DNA from: a virus
IMG/VR virus record: IMGVR_UViG_3300043424_000514
Location: 8,871-72,870 of that record
Length of the DNA: 64,000 nt
Strand: one strand, 5' to 3'
In this document: one piece after another, positions 2,397-42,187 of the stretch
How the letters are laid out: each line of letters begins with the position of its first letter
Position numbering within the stretch: position 1 is the first letter of the stretch
Program-made: the position numbers and the translations under genes
Notes under the pieces: model-generated
The model's input: only the letters and a program-made list of their open reading frames with translations
Database searches by the model: none
What the model was told of the DNA's origin: nothing

Positions 2397-2738
2397 ATGG
2401 AAGCTGTTGAATACCCTTTGACGATCGAGCAAGGTTCCACTTTTCAGAAGCAATTTCGCTGGAAGGTGGACGGGCAGGTTATGAACCTGACGGGTTACAC
2501 GGCCAAGATGCAGGCCCGCAAGAGCTACGGCGGTGCGGTTGGTTTTGAACTCAGCACCGAGAACAGCCGGATTTTGTTGGGCGGCGCGGGGGGAACGGTC
2601 TCATTGGAGATGGCTCCTGAAGAAACGGCGGCGCTCCCTGTGGGAAATTTTGTTTACGATTTGGAACTGACGACCGGCGGCGTGGTCCGCAAACTTATTC
2701 GCGGCACGGTGGTTGTGCTGCCGGAGGCAACGATCTGA
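2397..2738 (+). CDS. virion accessory protein, BppU N-terminal-like Ig fold
   Basis: LTIEQGSTF...NLTGYTAKMQAR...FVYDLELT...LIRGTVVV pattern typical of this family; start moved to ATG 2397. Confidence 0.7.
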   Translation: MEAVEYPLTIEQGSTFQKQFRWKVDGQVMNLTGYTAKMQARKSYGGAVGFELSTENSRILLGGAGGTVSLEMAPEETAALPVGNFVYDLELTTGGVVRKLIRGTVVVLPEATI

Positions 2739-2739
2739 T

Positions 2740-3273
2740 ATGGCGGAGATTATCGAAATTATTGGCTCGGGATTGACTGGCCCCCAGGGGCCCCGCGGGT
2801 TGCCTGGGTTGAACGGAGCCCCTGGAGCCGCTGGGGCGCAAGGTCAGATTGGCCCCGTCGGCCCCGTCGGCCCTGTCGGCCCTCAGGGTTTGCAAGGCGA
2901 CAAGGGCGACCGCGGGCTGCAAGGTCCTAAAGGCGATAGCATTGTCGGTCCCCAGGGCGAGCGCGGGTTAAAGGGCGACAAAGGCGACCGCGGCGTGGAA
3001 GGTCCTATGGGCCCCGTCGGCCCCGTCGGCCCGTCTGGCGGACCAGGCCCCGCTGGGGCGATGGGCCCCCGTGGTTTTCAAGGTTTGCGCGGCGACCCAG
3101 GCCCCCAGGGCATCGAAGGCCCCCGCGGATTGCAGGGCGTGCAGGGCAATAAAGGCGATACCGGCGCAGTCGGGCCCGCAGGTCCCCGCGGTTATACCGG
3201 CCCGCAAGGCCCCCAGGGCGAGGTTAGCAAAGGGTCAGTTATGGCTTTTAGCATCGCTCTTGGAGGCGTGTGA
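2740..3273 (+). CDS. collagen-like fibre protein
   Basis: long Gly-X-Y runs; C-terminal MAFSIALG. Confidence 0.8.
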   Translation: MAEIIEIIGSGLTGPQGPRGLPGLNGAPGAAGAQGQIGPVGPVGPVGPQGLQGDKGDRGLQGPKGDSIVGPQGERGLKGDKGDRGVEGPMGPVGPVGPSGGPGPAGAMGPRGFQGLRGDPGPQGIEGPRGLQGVQGNKGDTGAVGPAGPRGYTGPQGPQGEVSKGSVMAFSIALGGV

Positions 3274-7988: not shown

Positions 7989-9023
7989 ATGGCTAATCCC
8001 AACCTCAAAGTAGTCCGCCGCCGCCTTACTGGCGCAGCCGGAGCCCCTTCCGACATGGAAGCGGGACAAATCGCAATAAATTCCGTTGACGAAAAAGTCT
8101 ATATCCACAACGGCACTTCCGCAATCCCCGTTGCGGGTAAGGGCGAGTTCGTGGACAAAGGCTCCGAGCAGAGCGTCACCGGCAAAAAGAATTTCACCTC
8201 GGCGACCGTCTCCACCGCGCCAAGTGCTACGACCGATGTCGTTCGTAAAACCGATCTCGACACCGAAGTCACTGCACTTCAAGGTGCCATCACGACTGAG
8301 GCGACGACGAGAGCCTCGGCAGACACCGCTCTTGGTCTCCGCATCGACGCCCTAGGGAGCGCGCTGAACTATGTTGGCACTGTCAACGGTGGTGCAAACT
8401 CTGGCGCGGCGACTAACCTTGCCTCGCTGACCGAGAAGGACGCGGGCGATTACTACAAAGTAGGCACGGCAGGACACTTCGTTCTCGCTCCCGCAGCTTC
8501 GTTCTTCGCCAATAGCGGAGACGGCCTCGTCTTCAACCTCACTGGTGGAATCGACAAGATCGACAATACCAACAGCACTGTTGCAGGCACGGCGAACTAC
8601 ATTTCCGTTTCTGGTAGCACCGACACCGGCTACACGGTGGACATCGACAGCGCCTTCAAGACCCGTCTCACAACTGCGGAGACCACTCTTGCAGGGCTCG
8701 GCACCATGTCCACGCAGAATGCCAACAGCGTTGCCATCACCGGCGGCACGGTTAATGGCACGGCGATCGGCGGCACGACTGCTGCGGCTGGCGCGTTCAC
8801 CACGCTCACAGCTTCCTCGACCGCGACCCTGAACACCCTGGCCAGTTCCGGCGCTACCCTCACGGGCGGCACGATCAATGGCATGGCGATCGGCGGCACG
8901 ACTGCTGCGGCTGGCGCGTTCACCACGGTTTCGGCTTCTGGCAATGCGACCTTCAATGGCAACATTGTGGGTGACGGCTCGACCGAAATCACGGACTGCA
9001 TCATTGACGCTGGAACATTCTGA
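7989..9023 (+). CDS. tail fibre protein
   Basis: N-terminal RR...P....GQIAIN..D.K.Y fibre motif, [16 protein letters not shown] and [13 protein letters not shown] repeats, C-terminal DAGTF. Confidence 0.75.
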
Positions 9024-9026
9024 CGA

Positions 9027-9335
9027 ATGGCTGATCCAGTCCTCAAACTGAGACGCACAGATGTCGTGGGGCGAATCCCCACGGCATCTGACCTCCCCCC
9101 AGGGGCGATCGGCTACAATATCGCCGACAAAAAAATCTACGCTCGGCACGATGACCCGATGGGGGCTGTCGTTCAGATCGCCGCTTCGGTCGCTCAAGGG
9201 GAAAAGGCGGACATCTCGATTTCCAAAAACCCCTCGGACGCCACGCCCGTCAATACCATTCGGGTTCTTACGCAGGCGGAATATGACGGCATAGTTCCGA
9301 AAGACGCGACCACCCTTTATTTTATTAAGTCGTAA
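9027..9335 (+). CDS. fibre adaptor protein
   Basis: LKLRRT...P..SDL..G.IGYN..DKKIY N-terminus; LTQAEYD.I..KDA.TLYFI C-terminus typical of phage fibre linkers. Confidence 0.7.
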   Translation: MADPVLKLRRTDVVGRIPTASDLPPGAIGYNIADKKIYARHDDPMGAVVQIAASVAQGEKADISISKNPSDATPVNTIRVLTQAEYDGIVPKDATTLYFIKS

Positions 9336-10678
9336 TGCCTGAATTTATTAAAGCGTATCTTGGAACGACTCCTTTGTTTTCAAACGAAGCGCCTAAAACA
9401 TACCGCTCGTCGGATTCATACACCCGCCCTGCTGAATGGTTGGCCCTCCCGTCTGCCGCCGCGAACGAGGTTCGCGCCCTCCACGCTGTTTTCGACAATA
9501 CGGAAAATTTTTGCACGGTTCGGATGAATACGACCGATGCCTCGACTTATTTTATTGATTGGGGCGATGGGCAAATAGAAACCGCAACATCCAATTCGCT
9601 TCGCACTCATGTCTATGACTATTCTAATGCGGCTTTGGATTCTGCAACCGTAACCAAGTTCGGTTACAAGCAATGCTTAGTTCGCATCTATCCTCAAGCC
9701 GGGAAAACTTTTTCCAGATTTGACCTCGGCGTGAAGGCTACTTCCCCAGCAGGTTTGCAAACCTACTCAAGTGGATGGTTGGACATGAATATCAACCTGC
9801 CGAATCTTGTGGCTGGACTTAATCTAGTCCTCGGAAGCAGTGCAATTAGGCATGGTTTCTTGGAAAGAGTCAACATCACATCTTGGGGCGCGATAACCTC
9901 ATTGAACGGAGCTTTTAGGCTATGCGTTCGGCTTCGTTCCCTAAACGAGCATGAATGGAACACGACTAATATCACAAGTCTTAATGGGGCGTTTTTTTCA
10001 TGTTGGGCTTTAACGACCCTTGATGCTTCAAACTGGAACACGGCAAATGTCACGAACTTTGGGGATATGTTCCGTGACGCTATCGCAATCACCGCCATAA
10101 AAATGCCCCCTCAATTCATCACCCAGACTGCAACCGTGATGGTGAATATGTTTTTTGGTGCGAATAGTCTGCAAGAGCTGGATTGCTCGAATTGGGACAC
10201 ACAAAATGTAACCTCGCTCGCTTATGTTTTCAACGGATGCGCCCTACCGCGAGTTGATGTTTCAAACTGGAACACTGCCAAGGTCACCACGATCAACAAT
10301 ATGTTTCAAGGTTGTATTTTATTGCAATCAATAAATTTAACAAACTGGAACTTGAATCTCTGCACCAATGCTACCACGGCTTTTAACAACTGTCCCAGCC
10401 TTCGTGAATTGCTGGGGTGCAACATTTCTGCCGCAACCTCCCTCGGCACTCCGTTTCTTGCAGGATGCAACTCGCTTTCCAAGATGACTTTAACCGGCAT
10501 GAATGCGACATTTAATGTGACTAACTGCAATTTGAGTGGCGCGGCGCTGAATACGATTTACGCCAACCTCTCATCAAATGGAACGGGCAAAACGATTGGC
10601 GTAGCTGGGAACCACGGCATCGCAACTCACGACACCTCAATCGCGACCGCAAAAGGCTGGACCGTAGCAATAGTTTAA
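9335..10678 (+). CDS. BspA/DUF285-type leucine-rich-repeat protein, probable receptor-binding
   Basis: IDWGDG motif; repeated W(N/D)T.NVT....(M/A)F units of about 25 aa; C-terminal IATAKGWTV. Confidence 0.8.
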   Translation: MPEFIKAYLGTTPLFSNEAPKTYRSSDSYTRPAEWLALPSAAANEVRALHAVFDNTENFCTVRMNTTDASTYFIDWGDGQIETATSNSLRTHVYDYSNAALDSATVTKFGYKQCLVRIYPQAGKTFSRFDLGVKATSPAGLQTYSSGWLDMNINLPNLVAGLNLVLGSSAIRHGFLERVNITSWGAITSLNGAFRLCVRLRSLNEHEWNTTNITSLNGAFFSCWALTTLDASNWNTANVTNFGDMFRDAIAITAIKMPPQFITQTATVMVNMFFGANSLQELDCSNWDTQNVTSLAYVFNGCALPRVDVSNWNTAKVTTINNMFQGCILLQSINLTNWNLNLCTNATTAFNNCPSLRELLGCNISAATSLGTPFLAGCNSLSKMTLTGMNATFNVTNCNLSGAALNTIYANLSSNGTGKTIGVAGNHGIATHDTSIATAKGWTVAIV

Positions 10679-30220: not shown

Positions 30221-33200
30221 ATGATTATTCCTTACGACCAAGTTGAGGGCTATGAAAACTACACTCCAACCCTTAACGAAGAGGAAGATAAAGAAAACCT
30301 AGTCCCTATCTCCAGCGTCCCCATGAAAATGCGGGAGGACCTTTCCCTAGGGGAGGAATTCGGGCGCGGGTTTGACCGCGGGTTGCTCCAAACCAAGGGC
30401 CTTGGCCTCGGGTTGGTGGGGGCCCTCGGCGAGGCGGCGGGGTTGGATGATGTCGAGGAGTATGGCTACACCGGAGCGCAAGAGGCGATGCAGGCTGCGT
30501 CGGCTCCTGAACTCGCAGGTGAGGTGGAGAGTATTTTCGATGTGGGGTCCCCTGGGGACTTTATGAGCTATGCCGCGGGGCTGATGGGGTCGCAGGTTCC
30601 GAACCTGGCGATCTCGGCTGTGACCGGCGGCGTGGGCGGTATGGTCGGCAAACGGGCTGTCTCCGCGGCGATCACCGAGGCTTTGGAAGCGAAGACGGCG
30701 CAACTCGTGGGCGAAGGCGTGGCGAAGGAAGTCGCCAAGCGGCAGGCGCAAGTGGCGCTCTCCCGCGAGATGGGCGTGAACATGGCTGAAAAACTTGCTG
30801 CCGAGAAAGCGGCGCAGATTGCCGCGACGAAGACGGGCATCGGCGTGGGCACGGCGGTATCCGGCGTAGGCATGGAAGTCGGCTCGATCTACTCCGAGAC
30901 TCGCGATCTGGGGCTGGCTGTGAAATACGGCGTGCCTGCCGGATTGGTGGAAGGTATCGCTGACCGATACTTTGGCGGCAAGATCGTGGACGCCATCGAG
31001 GGGACGAGCGGGACGAAGGGGCTCAAAGCAGCGGGTAAAGAATTTGTAAAAGGCATCGGGGTCGAAGGCGGCGAAGAAGGCGTGCAGACCGCGCTGGAGT
31101 TGCAGGCTCTCGAAGAATCCGGCGTGGAGCCAGGGTTCGAGTTGTTCTCGAAAGAGGGTGCCAAGCGTGTCACGGAAGGCGTGGCGGCTGGCGCAGTGAT
31201 GGGCGGTGGCATGGCTACAGGGGTGCAAGGCTTGAAGCTGGGCCTGACTCCGCTGACACAGCGGGCGCTACAAGATGTCGAGACGGGGCTTCCCCCAGGA
31301 ACCGAGACCCCAGGAACCGAACAGCAGGACACGACCGACGAGGAGAAATTTTACAACTTCTCACCAGACGCGGTGACGATCGACGACGGTGACGATGACC
31401 CGATCACGGCCCGTCGTTTTACGATCGGCACTGAGAAGGGTTGGGCAATCGACAACCCGACCGAGGAGATGCAGCGCCGACTGGTTCCCCTAGGGAACAC
31501 CGGCAAAGTGGCTCTTGTGGACGGGGGTAAAGGTTACGGCGATGCGCTCAAACACATCCTCAACAACGGCGGTCGGGTTCGTAACATCGACCCCTCGATT
31601 CTGGACAACGAGATCGCGGATGATGACGGGGAGTATGTGGGCTTGTCCTCGTTCACACAGGACAACAAGCTGGCTGCGGGCACGGGGCAGCAGCAGGGGA
31701 AAGTGCAGGGCACGGACCTTGAGATCGACGCGGAGCAGCGTGCTTTCGAGGATCAGTTAATTTCAAAATACGGCCAGCTAAACAATGTGCTGAATGCTAC
31801 GGAGTTGTTGGAATCCACAGGGGCGATGCCCCAGGGATCGTTCACCGGCTCTGAACGGGAGGCTTTGGGGGGAGGTCTGAATCAAGACGAGCGAAACGCG
31901 ATTCTTGCGGCGGTGCCTTCAAGGGAACTGACAAAATCCAAAGCCCAAGTGGAGCGACTGATCCGAGAAACGGAAGAAGCTGCGGCGAAAGAGGGGACGA
32001 CCCCAGAGCTTGAGCGCCGGTTGAACTTCCTCGCCGATGTGCAGGGGAGGATCGCGGATTTCGAGAACCTCAAGACGATGCAGCAAACCCTAGGGCGCAA
32101 GCCGCTGGAGGGTGGAGCCGCAGGGGAATTATCGGCAGGCGTTTCCAAGACTGACCCCGTAGAAGAAAAGCTCGCAGAGTGGAGCCGGATCGTGGAGGAG
32201 CGGGGGAAAGTCGATACCGAAATATCTTCACTACAAAAGCTAACTGCTCCTTCTGGTGGAGGTTCTATTTTTGATGCTCTCGACGCCTACGAGATGATGC
32301 TGTCAGATAGTCAGAAAGTTTCACAAGAAATTGCGGCGCTCAAAAAAGCAAAAGCCGACAAGAATCAAATCCAGGCGAAAATGCAGGAGCTTCGGAACAT
32401 TGAGGAGTCCGCAAGGGGGTTGATTAGTGAATCAGGCAACCAAGATTTGTTTGCAAATGAAGTTCGCAAGCAGGTTGTGGTAGAAGAAAGAAACAACTCA
32501 GCGGCTTACAAGGCATGGGACGCTTTAGTTCAGGAAGCTGACGCGCTACAAGCTGAACGGGATACTCTTGTTACTGAGGAGGACATCAAAAATTTTGACG
32601 AATCGTCAAAGGGAAAAAAACTAGAGACGATTGCTCAAAAAATCGACAAGGCTTACGAGCAAGTAGTCCCAACAGCACGACTCGCGGAGTTTTACAAAAA
32701 CGCTGCAAAAGTAGCTACTGCGAAAAGAGATGAACAGCGTCAAGTTGACCAAGCATCTCAAGAGCAAAGACTCGCTGCGGAAAATAACTTGAAGTCCGCG
32801 ACAGAGAAAAGCCGAGGACTGAACACAGATGTCGTCTATAAAACTCCTGATGGCAACACAGTCGTTGGAACCTTGGTGCCCGACCCCGAGACGGGGCGTG
32901 CATTGGACCAAAACGGGAATCTCGTTATCGCGCCGAAATCTTTTGAAGGCAGCGACAAAAGCGATTTAGTAGATACAAGAACTCAATACGGCGACCGCTT
33001 CATCCGAGTCCCCAGGGAAAATGTCTTGAACATTGTTCCAGACAAAACGGTGGGAGTGAAAACACAAGCGGCCAGCCAGGCAAAAGCCTTGGGCGTGGAA
33101 AACGCCGACCAGAATTCTCTGGCTCAGAACGCCACGGCGATTGCGGCCAAGCTCAATGAGCAATCGGAAGCCCGAGAGAAGGAACTGGAGAACTCTTTGG

Positions 33201-36200
33201 AGCCTGTCTTTACGAGAGACAACAAGGGCAAGTTGGTCCCAAGCGCGGTGCGTCGCGGGGAGACTGTCGGCTTGCGTTTAGAGGGTCGTGAGGCTTTGCA
33301 CAAGACGATGTATCTGCCAGACGGCACGACGCTCGTGCCCACCAACGCGGGAATCTTCCGTGGTGTGGAGGGGGCTGGAGTGGATCAACGAGTCGTCTTC
33401 GACCGCTACTATGTCGCCAAGCCCAAAGGGGCCAAAGCGCCTACCGCTACGAACACAGTATCGCTCCCAGTGTTGCGCCCTGGGGAGACGCTCATCACGC
33501 TAAACGACCTCTCGGACGAGCAGAAAACAAGCACTGGGATAACCCGCGCCAAAGGGGGCAAATGGAGAACCAGCGAACTTGTTTCCGAGGACCTTTGGGA
33601 CAACCTCTACAAAGCTCCTAAAGCTGCCGTCTTCGGAACAGCGAAGACGCCGGTGGGTGGAGTGCTTGCCCCTACTCAAAAGCCAACCCGCTCGGGGACC
33701 CGCATGACCCAGACGCCCAGCGTCGCGGAGACGGAAAGTGGAGACTTGGAACTTCAGGATGTTTTCACTTTTGAAGGCGACCTCACCGACGCGGAAAGAA
33801 TCTTGACTACCGCCCTGGGGAAATTTTCCGCTACCCCGACCCGCGAGGAATTGATCTCGGCGGGGTTCACGCCGACGAATGAGAAGGCGGAGTTCGAGGT
33901 GGCGCGTGGGAAGTATGCTCTGGAGGAGGTTCAGGATGTAACCATCAAAGACCCGCTCTCAGGGTCGGGCTTGGACATCCCCGTCAAAGCAGGGGTTTTC
34001 AAAGACTCCAAGAACCCCGACGCTCCGGCGCAAGTCAAGCTGTATGCCCAGTTCGACCTGAGCAAGGTGTATGCCGCGATGGAAGAATTGGAGGCCAAGC
34101 GCAAGGCCCCCGACACAGCGCAGAAAAACGCCAATATCGTCAGGGCCGAGCAATCCCTAGCCCGAGAGGTTCAGGACTTGCAGCGCCTCACGCTGGCTCA
34201 AATGAACATGGGCCTTGATGTTCGTGTCCGCGAAATCAATGGGGTGCCGGAGGCGCAGTTTCTTTCTGACTATGGGTTTGTCGCGTCGCGGAATGCGAGA
34301 GCTTCTGGAAATAAAGGGGCGTTCGGAAACCACATCATCACCGAAGTCACCTACAACCCGAACCCTGATTTCAAAAAGGGGGGAGACACTTTCCGTCGAA
34401 AGGCGCAGAGCCCAAGACAGACGCAGCAACAAGCCGCCGCAACGCTTACCAATACGACACTGCGAGGCCGCGGGTTCGACTTCAAAAAGACGGGGCTCGG
34501 GTCGGCGAATCAAATCTTAGGGAACTTCCGCCGCCAGATGCTCGACCGAGCGCAAGAGGCAAAAGAAAAAGAAGCAGAAGCAATCGAGAGTGGCTCCGAC
34601 CTTGCCGCTCGGCACGCCGAGGCTTTGGTCAAGCTCACCGCGTTCACCCGCCCGATGTTTGAACGCTACGCGGTGCCAATTCGTAAACATATCGAAGAGG
34701 CCCCAGGCTCGACGCCAGAGTTCAAAGACCGTTGGCGTATGCAAACCGAACTCTTCTTGGCGCGTGAGTTGAACAAGACGCAACTGCGGGCAATGCCTGA
34801 CTCTGTTGCGGCAGAGATGCAAAAACAGATCGAGACTAAAAAACGCAATGCTGATAAAATAGAACCTGTCCGCGGGAAGCGCCGAGTTAAAAAGAAAGGC
34901 AAGAACTACGGGCAGTTGGTCGATGATCCTTACCAGTCCGAGCGTCAATTCAAAATCCGCCGCAGAGAGTGGCAACAAAAACTCGATAGCGAAATTGCGG
35001 AGATAGAAGAAAAATTCTTTCGGCAAATGCTCCCCAGGGCGACCCGCGGCAATACGGGGGTTTCTGAAGTAAATCGCCTCACGAAAGAGATCGAGGATAA
35101 GAAAACAGCAATCCGCCAAAGCGTAGCCGCCACGAAGATCAAAGAAAAGCCGAGCGCCGAAGAAATCAAAAAGCAAATCAGCGCCGACTCAGAGGTTAAA
35201 AAACTAACCGCTTCTTTTCAACAAGCTAAAGGGGACGCAGCAAAAAAGCGTTGGAAGACCAAGCTGGAAGCTAGAAAAGCGCAGATTGAAAACAACGCAA
35301 TCGTCGAGCGCGACCCGACCGAGGGAGAGATTGAGACCGAGACCCGCAATCGAGTTCAAAAAGACCAAGACATCTACAATTTGGAGCGGAAGATCGAAAA
35401 GCTCGGGGAGTTCACGACAGCGCAAGACGCGATGATTGACGAGTTCTTGGGCTTCATACAAGCCGAGGCAGAAAAAAGCGGGAACCAAAATCAAAAAGCC
35501 CTGACAGAGAACCTTCGCCGATTGCTCGCTCGCAAAGAAGAAGCCGCAAAGGGAGGTAGAAAAGTATTTATCAATGTCCGCAAAGAGGTTGAAAAATCAG
35601 AGTCTTTTGCAGACCGCCAACTGCAAAAACAAATTAAGGCCGAAGCTAAAAAACTAGAAGCCACGGATGAAAGGGTAAAAGAACTCAAGGAAAAGCTCAA
35701 AAACGCGAAGCCTGGAAATGTTCTGCAACTAGAAAAGAAACTGCGGCTGCGAAAAGAAGCACTTCTCGAAGAAGCGGAATACCGTCTTTCCAAACAAGGG
35801 TTATTTATAGGACAAAACGACCAAAAAGCCGCCGAATCCGAAGAGCTTCTCGACTCCGCAGCTAAAGCGATGGATTCTGCACAAATCAGCGGCAACGACC
35901 GGATGTTCGAGGGTGCGGCTCAAAATTTTGCAGACCGGCAACAAGCCAATGAGGCAGAGAAGTTCTCCGACGCTGACCGAGCGATCGTCGAAGCCTTTGG
36001 CAAGATGATGGATGAGGTGAAAACCTTGAACATCTTTGGCACCACAGGGAGGGTTAAAGGCATCTTGCGACAAGGCTTCAATGAAGCAAGCAAGTTCAAA
36101 GGAGCTATCGAGAAGCAGGAGTTCGTTGACCCACAGACGGGAAAAGCTGCCGACGCGGGGAGCGACCTCGTGCAGGGAATGATCCGCGGGCAAGAAGACC

Positions 36201-39200
36201 CGCTGGCCTTTGAGAACTACCGCGAGCCTCGCAAGAAGGATGACGCGAAGCGGCAGGAATACCTAGAAGACCTCGCCGCCCTCAAACTCAGAGAACTCGC
36301 GAGGGAGGCAAATGACAAAACCAAAGGTGATGTTGACCCCAATATCGTAGAACTTGCCCTCGTAAAGCTCTTTGGCGGTAAGTTTGAAGGAGAAGTTGAG
36401 GGCAACTACATCAATGAGACTTTCGAGCCATTGGCAAAAGAATACGCCGATGTCATGGAAGACTTTTTCGCGGGCACAACCGCAAGGAAAGAACAACAAA
36501 GAATAGCTGAGATTGAAGCTGCCCGCGGCAAAGGCGAAAGGTCCACTCTGACAAAAGAAGAGTTGGAGCCGCTCAGAAAAGAATCGAGCCGCATATCGAA
36601 AATCGCCTTTGGCGTCATAGAGAATTATCTGTTCAACCCGAATACAAAACGAACCCTGTCGGGCAAGTCTTTACCGACGACTGAAAAGGTTTCTCTCGGA
36701 ATCCCAGGTGCTCCCCTTGCCAGCGCCCCAGGGGCGAACGGCACTGATGTAGCCCAGAGTAATAAAAACGCAACCGCTCAACCTGACCGCAACCCGACAA
36801 GGGAAGGATCAAAAGCGGCGGTGCAATCATTCGTGCAAGGTTATGCAGGGCTAACCGACTCCGACATGGTCGGACTTGATGATAGAGAAATCGACGCGAT
36901 CTACCAAGCGGCGACCTCGAAGGCCGATGCCGACATGGCGGCTGGCGCAGTGGACTCTGTCGTAGCTGCCACCCCAGGGATGAACGCGCTCCTCGAAATG
37001 AGCGGCAAGGATTTGATGCGCGGGTATCTCAGGGAACTCGAAGCAGAGCAGACCCGTGGAGATGCCGAGACGATCCTTCGCGAGAACCTCCGCAGGGCGG
37101 CGACAACGAAGATGTTCAAGTCGAACACCGACTTTCTGGAGTATGTCTCCAAGATGCCCCAGGGGATCAAGCGGGCGGCTGCACTTCGAGCGAAGGAATT
37201 CCTCAAGCTCAACGAGCAGCGCGGGTTCAACTGGAACAAGATCGCTACGCAGATCGCGGCGTTCGGCAAAGACGGCAAGCAGGCCACATGGGCGGGGCTC
37301 CTAGGGACCGACATGGAAACCGGCGGGCACGCCATCTTCCTGAACCTCGATCAGATTCACGAGGGCGACATCGTGGAGACGATGCTGGAGGAGATGGACC
37401 ACGCGCTCACCCACCGGATCATCAACGCGGAAGCCTTCGGCATGAAGCTGAACTCTGTTCAGCAAAGCGCCCGTGATCGTTTGAGAACGGATTTCAAACG
37501 CGCTGTGCTGAAAGCCGGAGAAGGCATGACCGAATTGGCCGAAGGAGCCCGTGGGTTGACGCCGGAGCAGAAGGTGGCGTTCTACTCGAACGCCTTCAAA
37601 GACATGGTGGCGGAAAGCCCCGATCAATTCCGTGCCTACTACAACCTTACGAACCTCGACGAGTTCGTGGTGGGCATCAAGAAGGACGGCAGCTTTATCG
37701 ACTTGCTCAAGGAACTTGGCTTCAGTGAAAAAGCCGAGGGCGGCTTCTCGATCTCGCAGCTCCTCAAAGACATTTTCACCTCGCTGGCGGAACTCGTCAC
37801 AGGGCGCAGGCTGGATGCAAACTCCGAGCTTGCCCGTGCGTTCTCCGACGCTTGGACCCTCTCCACAGGGCGCGATGCGAAGCAATGGACGGTGCCCCCG
37901 ACCCAGCTATCCATGGCCCTAGGGGTCGAGGCGGCAAGCACCAGCAAAGCGACCGGCAGCAATGAAACCGTGCGGATGCGTAAGGACGGCGGCACCGCCG
38001 TTTACAACGCCTACCTGCAACAGAACGAAGACGGGTCGTGGTCGGTCTTTGGAGAATTCGGAGACCCCACTAGGAAGCTCCAGCGTGCCGAGAAAAGCAA
38101 AGGCAAGCTCGATTACGAACAAGCCAAGGCGGTTTTCGACAAGACGGTTGAAGCCAAGTCCAAGAAATACTCGGTGATTCCTGAAGGACCAGAAGGACCT
38201 CAAGGACCAACGGGACCGAACGAAGGTCCTCAAGGCCCCCAAGGGCCACAAGGTCCACAAGGTCCCGCCGTGACTCCGCGGGCGCAGAGAACCCCAGGGG
38301 AATATGGTCGCAGCTTCCTGCCGCAATCCGCCCCAGGGCGGCGGTCGAATGTGACCAGGTTCAACGAACTCACCGCCGATCTGCAAGGGCGCAATCTTAC
38401 TCAAACCGACCTCGATGCTTGGAAGAACGCTAACCCTGAGAAGTATGCAGAGCTTGAAAAAATGCGGGAGGATGCGATTAAGTCCTCGGCAAGCAATAAC
38501 GGGCAAAAGGTATTCGGCCCGCTGTGGCACATTTCCAGTGAGACAGGACTTTCCGAAAACAGGTTTGACCCGAATAAAATAGGGAGCCAAACAGATAGCG
38601 GGTATTTAGCCAGAGGGTTTTATTTTGCCGGAAGTGAAGATGAGGCAAGAAACTCTGTCGGCCTCCAAACATCGAGGTCGGGAAAAGCATACCGAGTATT
38701 TGTAGGGTTCAAAAATCCTTTAGAAGTAACCCTACAGTCAAATTCGGTTGGAAACTGGCAATACAACGATGCTAATAAATCAGTTATAGAACAGCTTGCA
38801 AAAATCGTAACGCCTCAAAAATGGAATGAATTCTTAACCAAGTATAATTATAGCGCAGAAGAACTCAAAGAGCTTGGGTTAAGGCCCCCCTCCGAAATAA
38901 AAAATAGAGATTTAAGTTTCTATAATTTTTCGCTCAACGCTTACAACGAGTTGTTCAACTTTTTAGGGATAGATGGGATTGTTACTAAACTTAAAAATGG
39001 GGCTCCATTTGAAGTTGTAGGACTATCCACAGTAAAAAACCCAACCTTCAACCCTAACCAAATCAAGTCCGCCGAGCCGCTTAACCTTGAAAACGGACGG
39101 CTCATTCCGCCGACCGAGTGGGCGCAGCCGGAGAATCCAAACATCCTATACTCCGCCCCAGGGCGGCGGTCGAATGTGACCAGGATGCTCCTAGGGAAAA

Positions 39201-42187
39201 AAGAGGGGACGACTTACACCGGCAAGAAGGTGGAGACCGGTGGCTGGTTCGCCTCCGACGCCTTGGCGACGGATGGAGTGACCGCGATGTTCGATCGCAA
39301 GACGAACCGCGAGTCCTTCGGCAAGCAGCAGGCCGAATTTTATGACAAGGCCCTGGGCAGGGCGCTGAAGAAATACGAGGGCCAGTTCAACCCCAAAGAT
39401 GTCAACGACGCCCTGGGGAATATCGAAAACCCGCTCACCGAGGCGCAGGCCAGGGAGATCGACGAACTCGTGGCGACCAACCAAGAGGCGGATGCCGCCG
39501 TGCTGAAGAACGATTACATGGAGGCTAACCGCGCCGACTTCCGCAGGCGGCAGGCCGAGGCCCGCAAGCGTCTGCCCGAGGAGGTCGTGAAGATCATCGA
39601 GGAGATGCGCGACACGGTCGATCCGCTCAGTAGCTACGCCGACGAGAAGATGGGCTTCTCGACCGCCGCCAACCAAGGAATCTACCTGAACCGCGCTTAC
39701 CTGATTTTCGGGGACGAGAAGACAAGAGAGCTTCACCAAAAACAAATCCGCGAGAACCCTGTGGTGATGGAGAACCTAAAGAACTACCTCTCCCGACAAC
39801 TCGCGGAGCAGGACGCCGAGGCTTTGATCCGCCGAGCCACCCGCGAAGGGCGAATCCTCCCTAGGGAAGAAGCCTTGGTCCAAGCCACCGCCAATTTGTC
39901 GCCGACAGATTTGGGCGCGGCGATCGAGCGCGTGCTCAATGCGGGGGATAAAGGAGTCGGCTCCTTGTTTGTCTCGGGGCGCATCCCTGGGCAAAAGAAC
40001 CTGAAAATCTTTGATGCCCGCGGCAACATCGCCAAGGAAATCCAAGCGGCCTGGGGCGTGGTCGAAGACCCTGGCACGAACTACGCGAACACCGTCATCA
40101 AGCTCGCGAACCTGGTCGCCAACGACAAGTTCTTGCAAGAACTCAAGGCGGCGGGGCTGGAGTCGGGCACGCTCTACGACCCTAGGGACCCGAAGAACCT
40201 GAACGAGGAGGACGGGCAACGACTCGCTGACGCCCGCTCGGCGGCTCTGGAGGCCGATCCGACACTGGCGGCGCGGTCGCGCTTCAAGCCAGAGTTGCTC
40301 GATCGGGCAATGATCGCCCAAGACCCTGTGGTGGCGAGCATCCTCGAACAGGCTGAAAGCAAAGTCCCTTCAAAATATGTAAAGCTATCCAGCGAGACGA
40401 ACAAATCGTTCGCTCCCGTCTCGGGTATGTATGCGGAGCCGCTCTTGTTCGAGTGGTTGACCACGAAGTTCCCGCCGAGGGGCGAGGAGAGTTGGTGGAT
40501 GAAAGCCCTTACGCAGGCAACGCTCGTCCCTATGGCGATGAAGACCGTAGGCAGCGTGACAGGGCAATTCCGAAACTACTACTCGGGCTATATGTCGCTG
40601 CTTTCTAATAGCAACTTGAGGTTTTGGGACCCTGAGTGGCGGGAGGATTTCAAAGCCGCGCACCGCATGACCTTCGGAGAAATCTATCGGGATGTGCGGG
40701 GAATCTCTACCGATGCCACAGCTCGCAAGGCGATGATGAAAGCCCGCGAAAGGCTTTCGGAGTTGGGAGTGACCGGCCAATCCGTGACGATGAACTTCAT
40801 GCAGGACTTGGCGCGGCTGAACTCTGGCAAGGAGAACGGCATCGTCAAAGGAATCGACGGGCTGGTTCAGAAATTCATCCAGACCTACGGAGCATCGGAC
40901 GACAATTTCAAAATCATCCACTACTTCAGCGAGCTTGGCAAATACCGCAGGGCGTTCCCTGATATGCCGCAGGCACAGCTTGAGGAAAAAGCCGCCGCGA
41001 TCGCCCGCGGGATTCATCAAACTTACGGAGACACTTACTCGGCGGTGAAGTCGTTGAAGAAAGTTCCGTTCATCGCGCCGTTCATCAGCTTCACCTCGGA
41101 GGTGATTCGCAATACGATTTATTCAGGGCGCTTGGCGTGGAACGAAGTCAAAGAAGGCCGTGCCACAGGGAATCGGGAACTCGAACGAATCGGGCTCCAA
41201 AGATTCGCCGGAATGAGCATTGCGGGCTTTGGCACCTTTGCATTGACGAGCATCAGCGCATCTCTTGTAGGGATCAGCGGCGAGGAGGAGCGGGAGTTCC
41301 GAAAGCTGCTGCCGGAGTGGCAGCGCAACAGCCAACTTCTTTTCACAGGGAAAGAAAACGGGAAGATTAGATTCGCTGATTTCAGTTTTAGTGACCCGCT
41401 ATCGTATCTGAAAACCCCTGCGATCGCTTTTAGCAGAGAAATCTGGAGCGGCGACGAACGCTCGTTCAACGAGAAAGTCGGTAAGGGAATTCTAAACGCC
41501 ATGCAAACCCTCGCGTCTCCGTTCGTCTCGGAGCAGTTGTTCTCGGGTTCTTTGATGCAGCTTTACTCGAACAAGGACGGATCAGGCAGGGAGATCGTGA
41601 ACTGGCAAGACGACCCCGCCGCGATTGCAGGGGCGGTAGGAGGGCACCTAATCCAGCCATTCCTGCCAGGAACATTCGACTCCCTAGGGCGCATTGGCAA
41701 AGCCTTTACCGGCTATGTCAGCCCGAGCGGTCGCTCCTATGACAAGGGGAACGAAATTATGAGCTTCTTCGGAGCGCGTATCTCCGAGGTGGATGTGCGC
41801 CAATCCCTAGGGTTCAAGACCAAGGCGTTCATGCAGAACTACCGCGAGGCGGCAGAACTGTTCACAGGGCCGTTCTTGTCCCGCGGCACGCAGGATAGCG
41901 AGAGCATCGTGGAAGGATACGAAAGCGCCAACAGCGCGGTTCAGCGGTTGTTCGGAGAACTGCGGGGAATCTACCTCGGGGCGGTTCGACTCGGCGTTCC
42001 TCAACGGGAAGTCCTCTCGATCCTCAAGGCAAACGGACTTTCAGAAGAAAATCTCGCGATGCTTCGCAGCGGCAAGTTCAAGCCCTACCAAGCCAGCAAG
42101 CAGGCAATCACAAAGAACAGGGAGGCGGGGATGCAAACCCGAATCTCAGACTACAACAAAGCGTATGCGGCGGCTCAAAGACCCTAA
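30221..42187 (+). CDS. giant polyvalent internal virion protein (zincin-like, WGR, ADP-ribosyltransferase, LPD38-like C-terminus)
   Basis: 3988-aa ORF; LEEMDHALTH...NLDEFV; WGR-like YNAYLQ..DGSWSVFGEFG..LQ...AKAVFDK.VEAK.KKY; ART-like WH...FD...G.GFYF...KNP...GIDGI...NPNQIKSA; LPEWQRN..L...DFSFSDP. Confidence 0.8.
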   Translation: MIIPYDQVEGYENYTPTLNEEEDKENLVPISSVPMKMREDLSLGEEFGRGFDRGLLQTKGLGLGLVGALGEAAGLDDVEEYGYTGAQEAMQAASAPELAGEVESIFDVGSPGDFMSYAAGLMGSQVPNLAISAVTGGVGGMVGKRAVSAAITEALEAKTAQLVGEGVAKEVAKRQAQVALSREMGVNMAEKLAAEKAAQIAATKTGIGVGTAVSGVGMEVGSIYSETRDLGLAVKYGVPAGLVEGIADRYFGGKIVDAIEGTSGTKGLKAAGKEFVKGIGVEGGEEGVQTALELQALEESGVEPGFELFSKEGAKRVTEGVAAGAVMGGGMATGVQGLKLGLTPLTQRALQDVETGLPPGTETPGTEQQDTTDEEKFYNFSPDAVTIDDGDDDPITARRFTIGTEKGWAIDNPTEEMQRRLVPLGNTGKVALVDGGKGYGDALKHILNNGGRVRNIDPSILDNEIADDDGEYVGLSSFTQDNKLAAGTGQQQGKVQGTDLEIDAEQRAFEDQLISKYGQLNNVLNATELLESTGAMPQGSFTGSEREALGGGLNQDERNAILAAVPSRELTKSKAQVERLIRETEEAAAKEGTTPELERRLNFLADVQGRIADFENLKTMQQTLGRKPLEGGAAGELSAGVSKTDPVEEKLAEWSRIVEERGKVDTEISSLQKLTAPSGGGSIFDALDAYEMMLSDSQKVSQEIAALKKAKADKNQIQAKMQELRNIEESARGLISESGNQDLFANEVRKQVVVEERNNSAAYKAWDALVQEADALQAERDTLVTEEDIKNFDESSKGKKLETIAQKIDKAYEQVVPTARLAEFYKNAAKVATAKRDEQRQVDQASQEQRLAAENNLKSATEKSRGLNTDVVYKTPDGNTVVGTLVPDPETGRALDQNGNLVIAPKSFEGSDKSDLVDTRTQYGDRFIRVPRENVLNIVPDKTVGVKTQAASQAKALGVENADQNSLAQNATAIAAKLNEQSEAREKELENSLEPVFTRDNKGKLVPSAVRRGETVGLRLEGREALHKTMYLPDGTTLVPTNAGIFRGVEGAGVDQRVVFDRYYVAKPKGAKAPTATNTVSLPVLRPGETLITLNDLSDEQKTSTGITRAKGGKWRTSELVSEDLWDNLYKAPKAAVFGTAKTPVGGVLAPTQKPTRSGTRMTQTPSVAETESGDLELQDVFTFEGDLTDAERILTTALGKFSATPTREELISAGFTPTNEKAEFEVARGKYALEEVQDVTIKDPLSGSGLDIPVKAGVFKDSKNPDAPAQVKLYAQFDLSKVYAAMEELEAKRKAPDTAQKNANIVRAEQSLAREVQDLQRLTLAQMNMGLDVRVREINGVPEAQFLSDYGFVASRNARASGNKGAFGNHIITEVTYNPNPDFKKGGDTFRRKAQSPRQTQQQAAATLTNTTLRGRGFDFKKTGLGSANQILGNFRRQMLDRAQEAKEKEAEAIESGSDLAARHAEALVKLTAFTRPMFERYAVPIRKHIEEAPGSTPEFKDRWRMQTELFLARELNKTQLRAMPDSVAAEMQKQIETKKRNADKIEPVRGKRRVKKKGKNYGQLVDDPYQSERQFKIRRREWQQKLDSEIAEIEEKFFRQMLPRATRGNTGVSEVNRLTKEIEDKKTAIRQSVAATKIKEKPSAEEIKKQISADSEVKKLTASFQQAKGDAAKKRWKTKLEARKAQIENNAIVERDPTEGEIETETRNRVQKDQDIYNLERKIEKLGEFTTAQDAMIDEFLGFIQAEAEKSGNQNQKALTENLRRLLARKEEAAKGGRKVFINVRKEVEKSESFADRQLQKQIKAEAKKLEATDERVKELKEKLKNAKPGNVLQLEKKLRLRKEALLEEAEYRLSKQGLFIGQNDQKAAESEELLDSAAKAMDSAQISGNDRMFEGAAQNFADRQQANEAEKFSDADRAIVEAFGKMMDEVKTLNIFGTTGRVKGILRQGFNEASKFKGAIEKQEFVDPQTGKAADAGSDLVQGMIRGQEDPLAFENYREPRKKDDAKRQEYLEDLAALKLRELAREANDKTKGDVDPNIVELALVKLFGGKFEGEVEGNYINETFEPLAKEYADVMEDFFAGTTARKEQQRIAEIEAARGKGERSTLTKEELEPLRKESSRISKIAFGVIENYLFNPNTKRTLSGKSLPTTEKVSLGIPGAPLASAPGANGTDVAQSNKNATAQPDRNPTREGSKAAVQSFVQGYAGLTDSDMVGLDDREIDAIYQAATSKADADMAAGAVDSVVAATPGMNALLEMSGKDLMRGYLRELEAEQTRGDAETILRENLRRAATTKMFKSNTDFLEYVSKMPQGIKRAAALRAKEFLKLNEQRGFNWNKIATQIAAFGKDGKQATWAGLLGTDMETGGHAIFLNLDQIHEGDIVETMLEEMDHALTHRIINAEAFGMKLNSVQQSARDRLRTDFKRAVLKAGEGMTELAEGARGLTPEQKVAFYSNAFKDMVAESPDQFRAYYNLTNLDEFVVGIKKDGSFIDLLKELGFSEKAEGGFSISQLLKDIFTSLAELVTGRRLDANSELARAFSDAWTLSTGRDAKQWTVPPTQLSMALGVEAASTSKATGSNETVRMRKDGGTAVYNAYLQQNEDGSWSVFGEFGDPTRKLQRAEKSKGKLDYEQAKAVFDKTVEAKSKKYSVIPEGPEGPQGPTGPNEGPQGPQGPQGPQGPAVTPRAQRTPGEYGRSFLPQSAPGRRSNVTRFNELTADLQGRNLTQTDLDAWKNANPEKYAELEKMREDAIKSSASNNGQKVFGPLWHISSETGLSENRFDPNKIGSQTDSGYLARGFYFAGSEDEARNSVGLQTSRSGKAYRVFVGFKNPLEVTLQSNSVGNWQYNDANKSVIEQLAKIVTPQKWNEFLTKYNYSAEELKELGLRPPSEIKNRDLSFYNFSLNAYNELFNFLGIDGIVTKLKNGAPFEVVGLSTVKNPTFNPNQIKSAEPLNLENGRLIPPTEWAQPENPNILYSAPGRRSNVTRMLLGKKEGTTYTGKKVETGGWFASDALATDGVTAMFDRKTNRESFGKQQAEFYDKALGRALKKYEGQFNPKDVNDALGNIENPLTEAQAREIDELVATNQEADAAVLKNDYMEANRADFRRRQAEARKRLPEEVVKIIEEMRDTVDPLSSYADEKMGFSTAANQGIYLNRAYLIFGDEKTRELHQKQIRENPVVMENLKNYLSRQLAEQDAEALIRRATREGRILPREEALVQATANLSPTDLGAAIERVLNAGDKGVGSLFVSGRIPGQKNLKIFDARGNIAKEIQAAWGVVEDPGTNYANTVIKLANLVANDKFLQELKAAGLESGTLYDPRDPKNLNEEDGQRLADARSAALEADPTLAARSRFKPELLDRAMIAQDPVVASILEQAESKVPSKYVKLSSETNKSFAPVSGMYAEPLLFEWLTTKFPPRGEESWWMKALTQATLVPMAMKTVGSVTGQFRNYYSGYMSLLSNSNLRFWDPEWREDFKAAHRMTFGEIYRDVRGISTDATARKAMMKARERLSELGVTGQSVTMNFMQDLARLNSGKENGIVKGIDGLVQKFIQTYGASDDNFKIIHYFSELGKYRRAFPDMPQAQLEEKAAAIARGIHQTYGDTYSAVKSLKKVPFIAPFISFTSEVIRNTIYSGRLAWNEVKEGRATGNRELERIGLQRFAGMSIAGFGTFALTSISASLVGISGEEEREFRKLLPEWQRNSQLLFTGKENGKIRFADFSFSDPLSYLKTPAIAFSREIWSGDERSFNEKVGKGILNAMQTLASPFVSEQLFSGSLMQLYSNKDGSGREIVNWQDDPAAIAGAVGGHLIQPFLPGTFDSLGRIGKAFTGYVSPSGRSYDKGNEIMSFFGARISEVDVRQSLGFKTKAFMQNYREAAELFTGPFLSRGTQDSESIVEGYESANSAVQRLFGELRGIYLGAVRLGVPQREVLSILKANGLSEENLAMLRSGKFKPYQASKQAITKNREAGMQTRISDYNKAYAAAQRP
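38327..39184 (+). repeat. exact 33-bp direct repeats (38327-38359, 39152-39184) flanking the ART domain
   Basis: TCCGCCCCAGGGCGGCGGTCGAATGTGACCAGG twice, 825 nt apart, in frame (SAPGRRSNVTR). Confidence 0.95.

Follow-up and report, generated by a model that had tools for sequence, protein, structure and literature searches.

A divergent WGR domain and an optional ADP-ribosyltransferase cassette in a giant polyvalent protein of an uncultured freshwater phage

Results

The window analysed here is a 64-kb stretch (positions 8,871 to 72,870) of the IMG/VR virus record IMGVR_UViG_3300043424_000514, which comprises 72,870 bases, is rated as complete by CheckV and belongs to an uncultured freshwater phage. 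A single open reading frame (ORF) of 3988 codons, taken from the ORF list and its translation, occupies positions 30221–42187 of the plus strand and encodes the giant protein P0002; all features described below within this ORF lie on the same strand. An initial annotation had placed a WGR domain next to an ADP-ribosyltransferase (ART) domain in this protein and had taken the two for a pairing like that of the PARPs. The peptides quoted for it all fall within the P0002 ORF, in frame 1 of window 37961–39078. Here, we report that both domains are recognisable, that the WGR domain is a constant part of the backbone in the relatives that carry it, and that the ART belongs to an optional cassette, a recent in-frame insert flanked by two copies of a 33-nt direct repeat.

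The WGR segment (aa 2582–2655; 37964–38185) belongs to the conserved backbone and is found in the giant relatives of P0002. Pfam reported no family on window 37901–38200 even at E≤10, a direct match to PF05406 at the cut-off being thus absent, and NCBIfam gave no match on the WGR segment, the cassette or the 325 aa upstream. The domain was recognised by a profile (A1) of nine WGR-segment sequences from the giant-protein family, which returned 48 matches at E≤1e-3 among 1.84 billion representative proteins, two of them the family itself. PF05406 was present at E≤1e-3 in 34 of the 46 non-self matches, 32 of the 46 reaching the cut-off of 22 bits, and an ATP-dependent DNA ligase domain was also found in 14 of these 34; two such ligases (P0021 and P0022) carry two tandem N-terminal WGR domains. 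The 12 matches without WGR were a fragment of the family, a ligase, five small Pfam-negative proteins and five repeat proteins (Ig-like, LysM or similar) whose matches were numerous weak fragments over the low-complexity beginning of the profile. Against PDB sequences the profile found no WGR domain, only a chance match to a ribosomal protein (E 1.2). In two distant giant relatives that are collinear with P0002, Pfam itself calls the equivalent segment WGR (28.7 bits in P0035 and 24.0 bits in P0024, against the cut-off of 22). Alignment of A1 with 17 Pfam-verified small WGR proteins by hhalign gave 98.9% probability and E 1.6e-17 over 81 columns, a result to be read with the reservation that these proteins (A5) were themselves found via A1 and are not fully independent of it, their Pfam scores being independent.

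Three residues, Y2595, G2614 and A2635, do not vary in the joint alignment, where F2613-G2614-D2615 align with the [W/Y/F]-G-R of the domain's name, as the initial annotation had proposed in reading the triplet as altered to FGD. The [W/Y/F]-G-R-R-G of the WGR relatives corresponds to F-G-D-P-T in P0002, where the glycine alone is retained of Trp-Gly-Arg. The motif is loose in verified members as well, many of which have Tyr or Phe for Trp, and P0027 reads G-D yet passes Pfam. With so loose a motif, and with Trp and Arg lost, the P0002 domain is therefore treated as a divergent homologue and not as a typical member.

An AlphaFold model of the segment, from 28 alignment rows, has a mean pLDDT of 69 (about 80 over residues 31–102) and shows four strands, a helix and a further strand, that is, the curved sheet with one helix seen in PARP1-3 and in PDB entry 2ra8. 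Foldseek placed the WGR domains of PARP3, PARP2 and PARP1 in the lead, with weak E values of 0.12–0.6, and the top 19 rows of the Foldseek-led list were all WGR. A search independent of Foldseek, over 48,161 PDB representatives, likewise returned WGR domains for the top five (Z 8.1 for 2ra8, 7.4 for PARP3 and 7.0, 7.0 and 6.7 for PARP1), with the next rows at Z≤6.0, and the best fold matches in the viral library BFVD include proteins named 'WGR domain containing protein [uncultured Caudovirales phage]'. Judged by profile, alignment and model together, aa 2582–2655 of P0002 are a divergent WGR homologue without the motif Trp and Arg.

The second domain (aa 2763–2953; 38507–39079) was assigned to the ART-PolyVal family, of H-Y-D type, on the strength of PF18760, a structural model and fold searches, and it stands out by its low GC content. 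Isolated segments scored 34.3 and 32.2 bits with PF18760 against a cut-off of 31.2. In ART-PolyVal domains the active site has been described as a His in strand 1, a Tyr in strand 2 and an Asp in strand 5 (PMC5512222), and the same arrangement is predicted here by alignment and model, with the NAD-site His at H2770 (codon 38528–38530), the NAD-site Tyr at Y2801 (38621–38623) and the catalytic Asp at D2918 (38972–38974), where strand 5 begins. For the 277-residue cassette, the model (nine alignment rows, mean pLDDT 70, pTM 0.73) puts H2770 in the strand at model residues 60–68, Y2801 in that at 96–100 and D2918 directly before that at 216–221, and it shows strands 4 and 5 to be separated by a helical insert some 70 aa long. 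In the corresponding alignment (A3) the His is kept in all nine rows and the Tyr in seven, with Phe or a gap in two, and the Asp is aligned in five; the remaining four have a nearby Y-D, misplaced by MAFFT among distant rows. Of the NAD-binding His, Tyr and Glu by which the domain was to be checked, the first two are in place and the acid is Asp, not Glu.

Foldseek matched the ART model to MbcT, diphtheria toxin, exotoxin A, tankyrases and ParT (E 0.013–0.4). In a second fold search all 50 matches listed were ART-superfamily chains, among them PARP and tankyrase catalytic domains, and the best 18 from the 48,161 PDB representatives were likewise all of this superfamily (ParT, NatT, tankyrase, MbcT, diphtheria-toxin homologues and PARPs), at Z of only 4.6–5.6. 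The fold evidence from the model is thus consistent, though not strong alone, and aa ~2763–2953 apparently form an ART-PolyVal domain with its triad intact, as had been claimed.

The same model also gave a weak match (Z 4.0, 123 residues, 14% identity) to residues 1422–1599 of chain B of PDB entry 9k3a, the pre-ejectosome of cyanophage A4. The main text of the paper on that structure (PMC12002296) has no word starting with 'ADP-ribosyl'; as a weak lead only, an ART-like domain may have gone unnoticed in the solved ejectosome protein.

The gap between the two domains amounts to some 110 residues. It begins with a flexible Pro/Gly-rich linker of about 47 residues (aa 2656–2702; 38186–38326), identified from the translation, which had initially been described as a collagen-like spacer. 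The first 27 residues do consist of nine GPx triplets, with one interruption. A collagen reading was rejected nonetheless, as Pfam Collagen scored only 16.5 bits against a cut-off of 27.2 and the feature is not conserved, relatives having an ordinary non-collagen linker rich in Pro, Gly and Thr at this position. Beyond the left repeat follows a 49-residue adaptor of three helices (aa 2714–2762; 38360–38506; NELTADLQGR...ANPEKYAELEKMRE), modelled at residues 2–14, 25–34 and 36–56 with pLDDT of 86–94, which travels with the cassette and is conserved in all ART cassettes, also those of proteins without WGR. After the ART domain the cassette ends in a conserved C-terminal tail (LNLENGRLIPPTEWAQPENPNILY; 39080–39151) that is likewise present in all cassette-bearing proteins, including those without WGR.

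The stretch from the WGR domain to the point where the conserved backbone resumes, at a motif ending TTYTG, is here called the slot and was compared in 19 WGR-bearing proteins of the family. The WGR domain is constant in all 19, and the slot directly follows it and its linker in every one of them. Five slots hold the ART cassette (P0002, P0003, P0004, P0005 and P0010) and three hold LPD37 (P0011 and P0014 by Pfam, P0070 by its precomputed Pfam label), while four contain other inserts (P0007, P0015, P0024 and P0035). Seven are empty, with 28–40 aa (P0006, P0008, P0009, P0066, P0067, P0068 and P0069; P0067 was counted from inspection of its sequence, its slot length not having been computed), and empty alleles are present in all three sub-clades. 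The ART cassette, together with adaptor and tail, occurs also in four WGR-less giant proteins (P0012, P0013, P0017 and P0018), to which profile A1 gave no match at E≤10. A word-index search for the cassette among proteins of 486–2000 aa found none. WGR and ART do not form a conserved unit, and the ART is an optional module of the slot. Two slot inserts without a Pfam match, in P0007 (aa ~2715–2985, ~270 residues) and P0035 (aa ~2905–3230, ~330 residues), are candidate effectors.

The fixed location of the slot behind WGR and linker in 19 of 19 members would fit a reading in which the WGR domain is a general targeting module that anchors the backbone at an end or nick in DNA, be it the phage genome terminus or host DNA, where whichever effector the slot contains would act without allostery. 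The nearest WGR relatives point the same way, since 14 of 34 are fused to ATP-dependent DNA ligases, in which a role at DNA ends or nicks is natural (PMC7470946), and ejection proteins of cyanophage A4 are described as touching the packaged DNA near its presumed terminus (PMC12002296). This reading is nevertheless unlikely: the motif residues of the WGR domain are not conserved, the ART cassette is also carried by WGR-less backbones, and seven members have nothing in the slot, so that the WGR domain therefore has a role without any effector.

At the DNA level a repeat search showed the cassette to be bounded by two direct repeats (38327–38359 on the left and 39152–39184 on the right), which are identical over all 33 nt, encode SAPGRRSNVTR at the left boundary and lie 825 nt apart from start to start, corresponding to 275 codons in frame. 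In the 64-kb window the repeat has just these two matches at three mismatches or fewer, where none is expected. Empty alleles carry a single copy, and the backbone beyond the cassette resumes exactly as in the empty allele, which also lacks the last 58 nt of the linker (38269–38326). The metagenome locus L003 has flanks identical to the window, a single repeat copy and no cassette, and in run X8, from another study, a 9,990-nt contig joins 38268 to 39152, giving the same empty allele. In run X5 a copy of the cassette that is about 97% identical is preceded on its left by 52 letters that do not match. GC content falls to 0.36–0.46 in the cassette, the lowest in the whole gene, against 0.57–0.63 in the flanks. 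P0003 is 85–96% identical to P0002 over residues 2701–3000, where the cassette lies, and only 32–71% identical over the backbone, whereas P0008 has a backbone mostly 94–100% identical to that of P0002 and no cassette. Because of the perfect repeats, the low GC and a cassette identity with P0003 far above that of the backbone, the cassette is regarded as a recent horizontal, in-frame insert of foreign composition. Since the ART is a recently moved in-frame module, its adjacency to the WGR domain follows from the location of the slot.

In run X1, a possible source sample, the assembly graph breaks at the repeat, which appears as a separate 33-nt unitig of depth 75, and the cassette unitig has a depth of 26 between flanks of 36 and 39, with no contig bridging the empty allele. 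A mixed population, or poorer coverage of low-GC sequence, could account for the lower depth of the cassette, and for want of a bridging contig no inference was drawn from these depths.

The junction motif, SAPGRRSNVTR in P0002 and SLAGAR in a sister clade, lends itself to a further reading, namely that it is a protease site by which the cassette is freed in the capsid or in the host, the DNA repeats being a consequence of this function and not the trace of a recombination. Filled slots in three clades are flanked on both sides by S-[AL]-x-G, in sequences that have diverged between the clades, and processing of polyvalent proteins into units has been proposed (PMC5512222). However, selection at the protein level alone does not explain two copies that are 100% identical over 33 nt, and the zincin-like motif of the backbone has no first His in the P0002 clade (EExxH). 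A protease site is a rather doubtful possibility; it is compatible with recent insertion and not exclusive of it, and the junction motif may have arisen as a scar of recombination, may serve for processing, or may combine the two.

The pairing had originally been read as a PARP-like unit in which the WGR domain senses DNA ends or nicks and switches on a co-injected ART. The two domains do exist side by side, and the WGR domain precedes the ART as is described for PARP1-3 and bacterial PARPs (PMC8120803); fold matches of the ART model include PARP and tankyrase catalytic domains. Yet the pairing is restricted to 5 of 19 members, in P0002 the ART was inserted recently, the same cassette is found without WGR, and the domains stand about 110 residues apart, across the flexible linker and the helical adaptor, and furthermore depart from PARPs in the triad and in the WGR motif. 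As the enzyme is a recently swapped-in, optional module, the likeness to PARPs is therefore probably accidental, and we consider a PARP-like unit very unlikely.

The giant gene closes a long plus-strand block that also contains tail-fibre-like and collagen-like genes, while replication genes (DNA polymerase, helicase and primase) are found on the minus strand. Within the block, window 2713–3273 encodes a 186-aa collagen-repeat protein (Pfam Collagen, E 6.5e-25) and window 9335–10678 a 447-aa protein with DUF285/BspA-type leucine-rich repeats (E 2.2e-26), both of which are probably fibre or adhesion parts.

P0002 has 17 + 6 giant relatives. PHROG 22602, labelled 'virion structural protein', matches aa 3385–3981 (E 4.3e-24), and the C-terminal 999 aa are LPD38/LPD39-like, resembling viral clusters with LPD38 in 61% or LPD39 in 55%. 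Among Pfam families, ART-PolyVal is the only one reported for the whole protein; in the relatives LPD37 lies above the Pfam cut-off and LPD38 below it. A search for an N4-like virion RNA polymerase in 500-aa pieces of P0002 and among PDB sequences yielded neither an RNA polymerase nor another domain, the whole protein had no match among PDB sequences, tblastn against 50,697 phage records gave no match, and scans of IMG/VR with the cassette and with the WGR profile found no relative. Giant, multi-domain, of phage origin and combining unrelated effectors with LPD domains, P0002 is a polyvalent protein by its sequence hallmarks. The match to PHROG 22602, the family resemblance and the position at the end of the plus-strand block suggest that it is probably carried in the virion and delivered with the DNA, in keeping with the virion-delivered protein first envisaged.

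Other parts of the gene deserve mention. Gly, Ala and Val abound in aa ~45–350 (window 30350–31270), which contain hydrophobic runs, have no family match and would suit a membrane-inserting ejection protein. Identity with P0008, elsewhere 94–100%, drops to 50–79% at window 32021–32920 (aa ~601–900), where GC is low (0.45–0.49), and at window 35321–35920 (aa ~1701–1900), which are possibly further exchanged segments. Some 190 residues upstream of the WGR domain, at aa 2390–2401 (window 37388–37423), lies a zincin-like metallopeptidase motif over which Pfam finds no domain. It is intact as HEADH in P0035 and P0024 and as HEALHH in P0012, P0013 and P0017; in P0002, P0003, P0007 and P0010 it reads EEMDH, and with the first zinc-binding His gone the self-processing peptidase proposed for polyvalent proteins may therefore be dead in the P0002 clade.

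Discussion

Taken together, we consider it likely that P0002 is a polyvalent protein carried in the particle, that its effector slot takes exchangeable modules, the ART being an optional enzyme that acts on a host target after delivery, and that the WGR domain serves the backbone. The giant protein would be packaged in the virion and would enter the host together with the DNA. The backbone presents, in order, a degenerate zincin-like motif, a divergent WGR domain, a flexible Pro/Gly linker and the effector slot, which in the P0002 phage holds a 275-codon cassette made up of the helical adaptor, the H-Y-D enzyme of ART-PolyVal type and the conserved tail. The cassette was presumably gained recently, by a recombination that kept the reading frame, at a short junction motif of which one copy now stands at either end of the insert. 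By analogy with T4 Alt, the ART would most likely mono-ADP-ribosylate a host macromolecule with NAD+ early in infection, and such a modification may serve takeover of the host or anti-defence. The WGR domain would serve the backbone whatever the slot contains, probably by binding nucleic acid or else as a structural remnant, and is not expected to be a dedicated allosteric switch of the ART.

Several points weigh against this interpretation. PF18760 scores only 25.8 bits, below its cut-off of 31.2, when the whole 3988-aa protein is searched, and the fold matches of the ART model have Z of just 4.6–5.7, below the level deemed distinctive for the search method, so that the ART assignment leans on the Pfam score of the isolated segment and on the triad. 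Confidence in the WGR and ART models is middling (mean pLDDT 69 and 70), and the hhalign result carries the reservation noted above. The probable location of P0002 in the virion leans on the PHROG label and on family resemblance, and most genes of the surrounding plus-strand block have no match at all. Nucleic-acid binding by the WGR domain is uncertain because of the loss of the motif Trp and Arg. Finally, the WGR domain may yet be functionally linked to the content of the slot, which adjoins WGR and linker in every one of the 19 members.

A more speculative version of such a link can be envisaged, in which the WGR domain is a working binder of DNA ends or nicks that parks the protein, once injected, on the phage genome as it enters or at breaks in host DNA, and the slot is a plug-in for DNA-acting effectors. 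We regard this as quite unlikely. If true, it would mean that the phage has independently rebuilt the logic of PARPs from parts, with DNA ends or DNA-bound defence and repair proteins as possible targets.

Injected ARTs in polyvalent proteins are already known and were described in 2017 (PMC5512222; see also PMC9503650). The term 'WGR' is absent from the main text of either paper, their supplements, which may be relevant, lying outside the search, and a full-text literature search for WGR in phage polyvalent proteins found no paper on the subject. The sole paper found to contain both 'WGR' and 'polyvalent protein' (PMC7824862) mentions WGR just as a transcription-factor domain of jumbo phages. 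What is new here, and was not found in print, is the WGR domain as a conserved backbone part in a family of phage proteins of ~3,600–4,400 aa.

The locus also offers an unusually clean natural record of effector gain and loss in polyvalent proteins, with filled and empty alleles in near-identical phages, an exact 33-nt duplication, an insert of foreign composition and the same cassette in a diverged backbone. The natural pair of filled and empty alleles provides a ready test of the value of an injected ART to the phage. At the same time it calls for caution, in that domain adjacency in mosaic polyvalent proteins is not equivalent to functional coupling.

Comparison with known systems

PARPs combine a WGR domain, a helical regulatory domain and a catalytic domain with an H-Y-E triad (PMC8120803). 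P0002 shares with PARP1-3 and bacterial PARPs the order of a WGR domain followed by an ART fold, and its WGR model superposes on the domains of PARP1, PARP2 and PARP3 with Z of 6.7–8.1. The catalytic Glu of PARPs is an Asp in the cassette, and the P0002 segments match neither the PARP catalytic nor the PARP_reg family of Pfam even at E≤10. The three N-terminal helices of the cassette align with the start of the tankyrase/PARP catalytic domain and not with the regulatory-domain residues of PARP1, though they may still be remotely related to that domain. W and R of the WGR motif are lost. Unlike the PARP combination, in which WGR and catalytic domain are conserved together, that of P0002 is recent in origin and not conserved, with the ART in 5 of 19 members and in four WGR-less proteins besides.

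By sequence, the WGR segment stands closest (E 1e-5 to 1e-12 with the family profile) to WGR-DNA ligase fusions from bacteria and phages and to phage WGR proteins that are small and free-standing. N-terminal fusion of WGR domains to ATP-dependent DNA ligases has been described (PMC7470946). These relatives keep a G-R-R-G core where P0002 has G-D-P-T, and in the ligases the domain stands at the N-terminus of a small enzyme, whereas in P0002 it is buried at about residue 2600 of 3988.

For the ART, T4 Alt provides the functional model of delivery together with the DNA. It is packaged in the head and injected to modify host proteins; it is an ART of the R-S-E clade and does not form part of a polyvalent protein (PMC5512222). 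No sequence relation between it and the P0002 ART was found in this analysis. The closer counterpart is the ART-PolyVal family itself (PF18760; Tox-ART-HYD2-like), whose prototype is found in the virion RNA polymerase of Roseovarius Plymouth podovirus 1 (Iyer et al. 2017, PMC5512222). According to the same source ARTs are the commonest protein-modifying domains of polyvalent proteins, the HYD2/polyvalent clade has the triad H-Y-D, and LPD38 is phage-specific. Compared with the prototype, the backbone of P0002 has no recognisable RNA polymerase or intact MPTase, and its ART, which contains a helical insert of ~70 aa, comes as an optional cassette flanked by repeats, downstream of a WGR domain. 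Both share the Pfam family, the H-Y-D triad, the setting in a giant phage protein with LPD domains and a predicted role as injected modifiers of the host.

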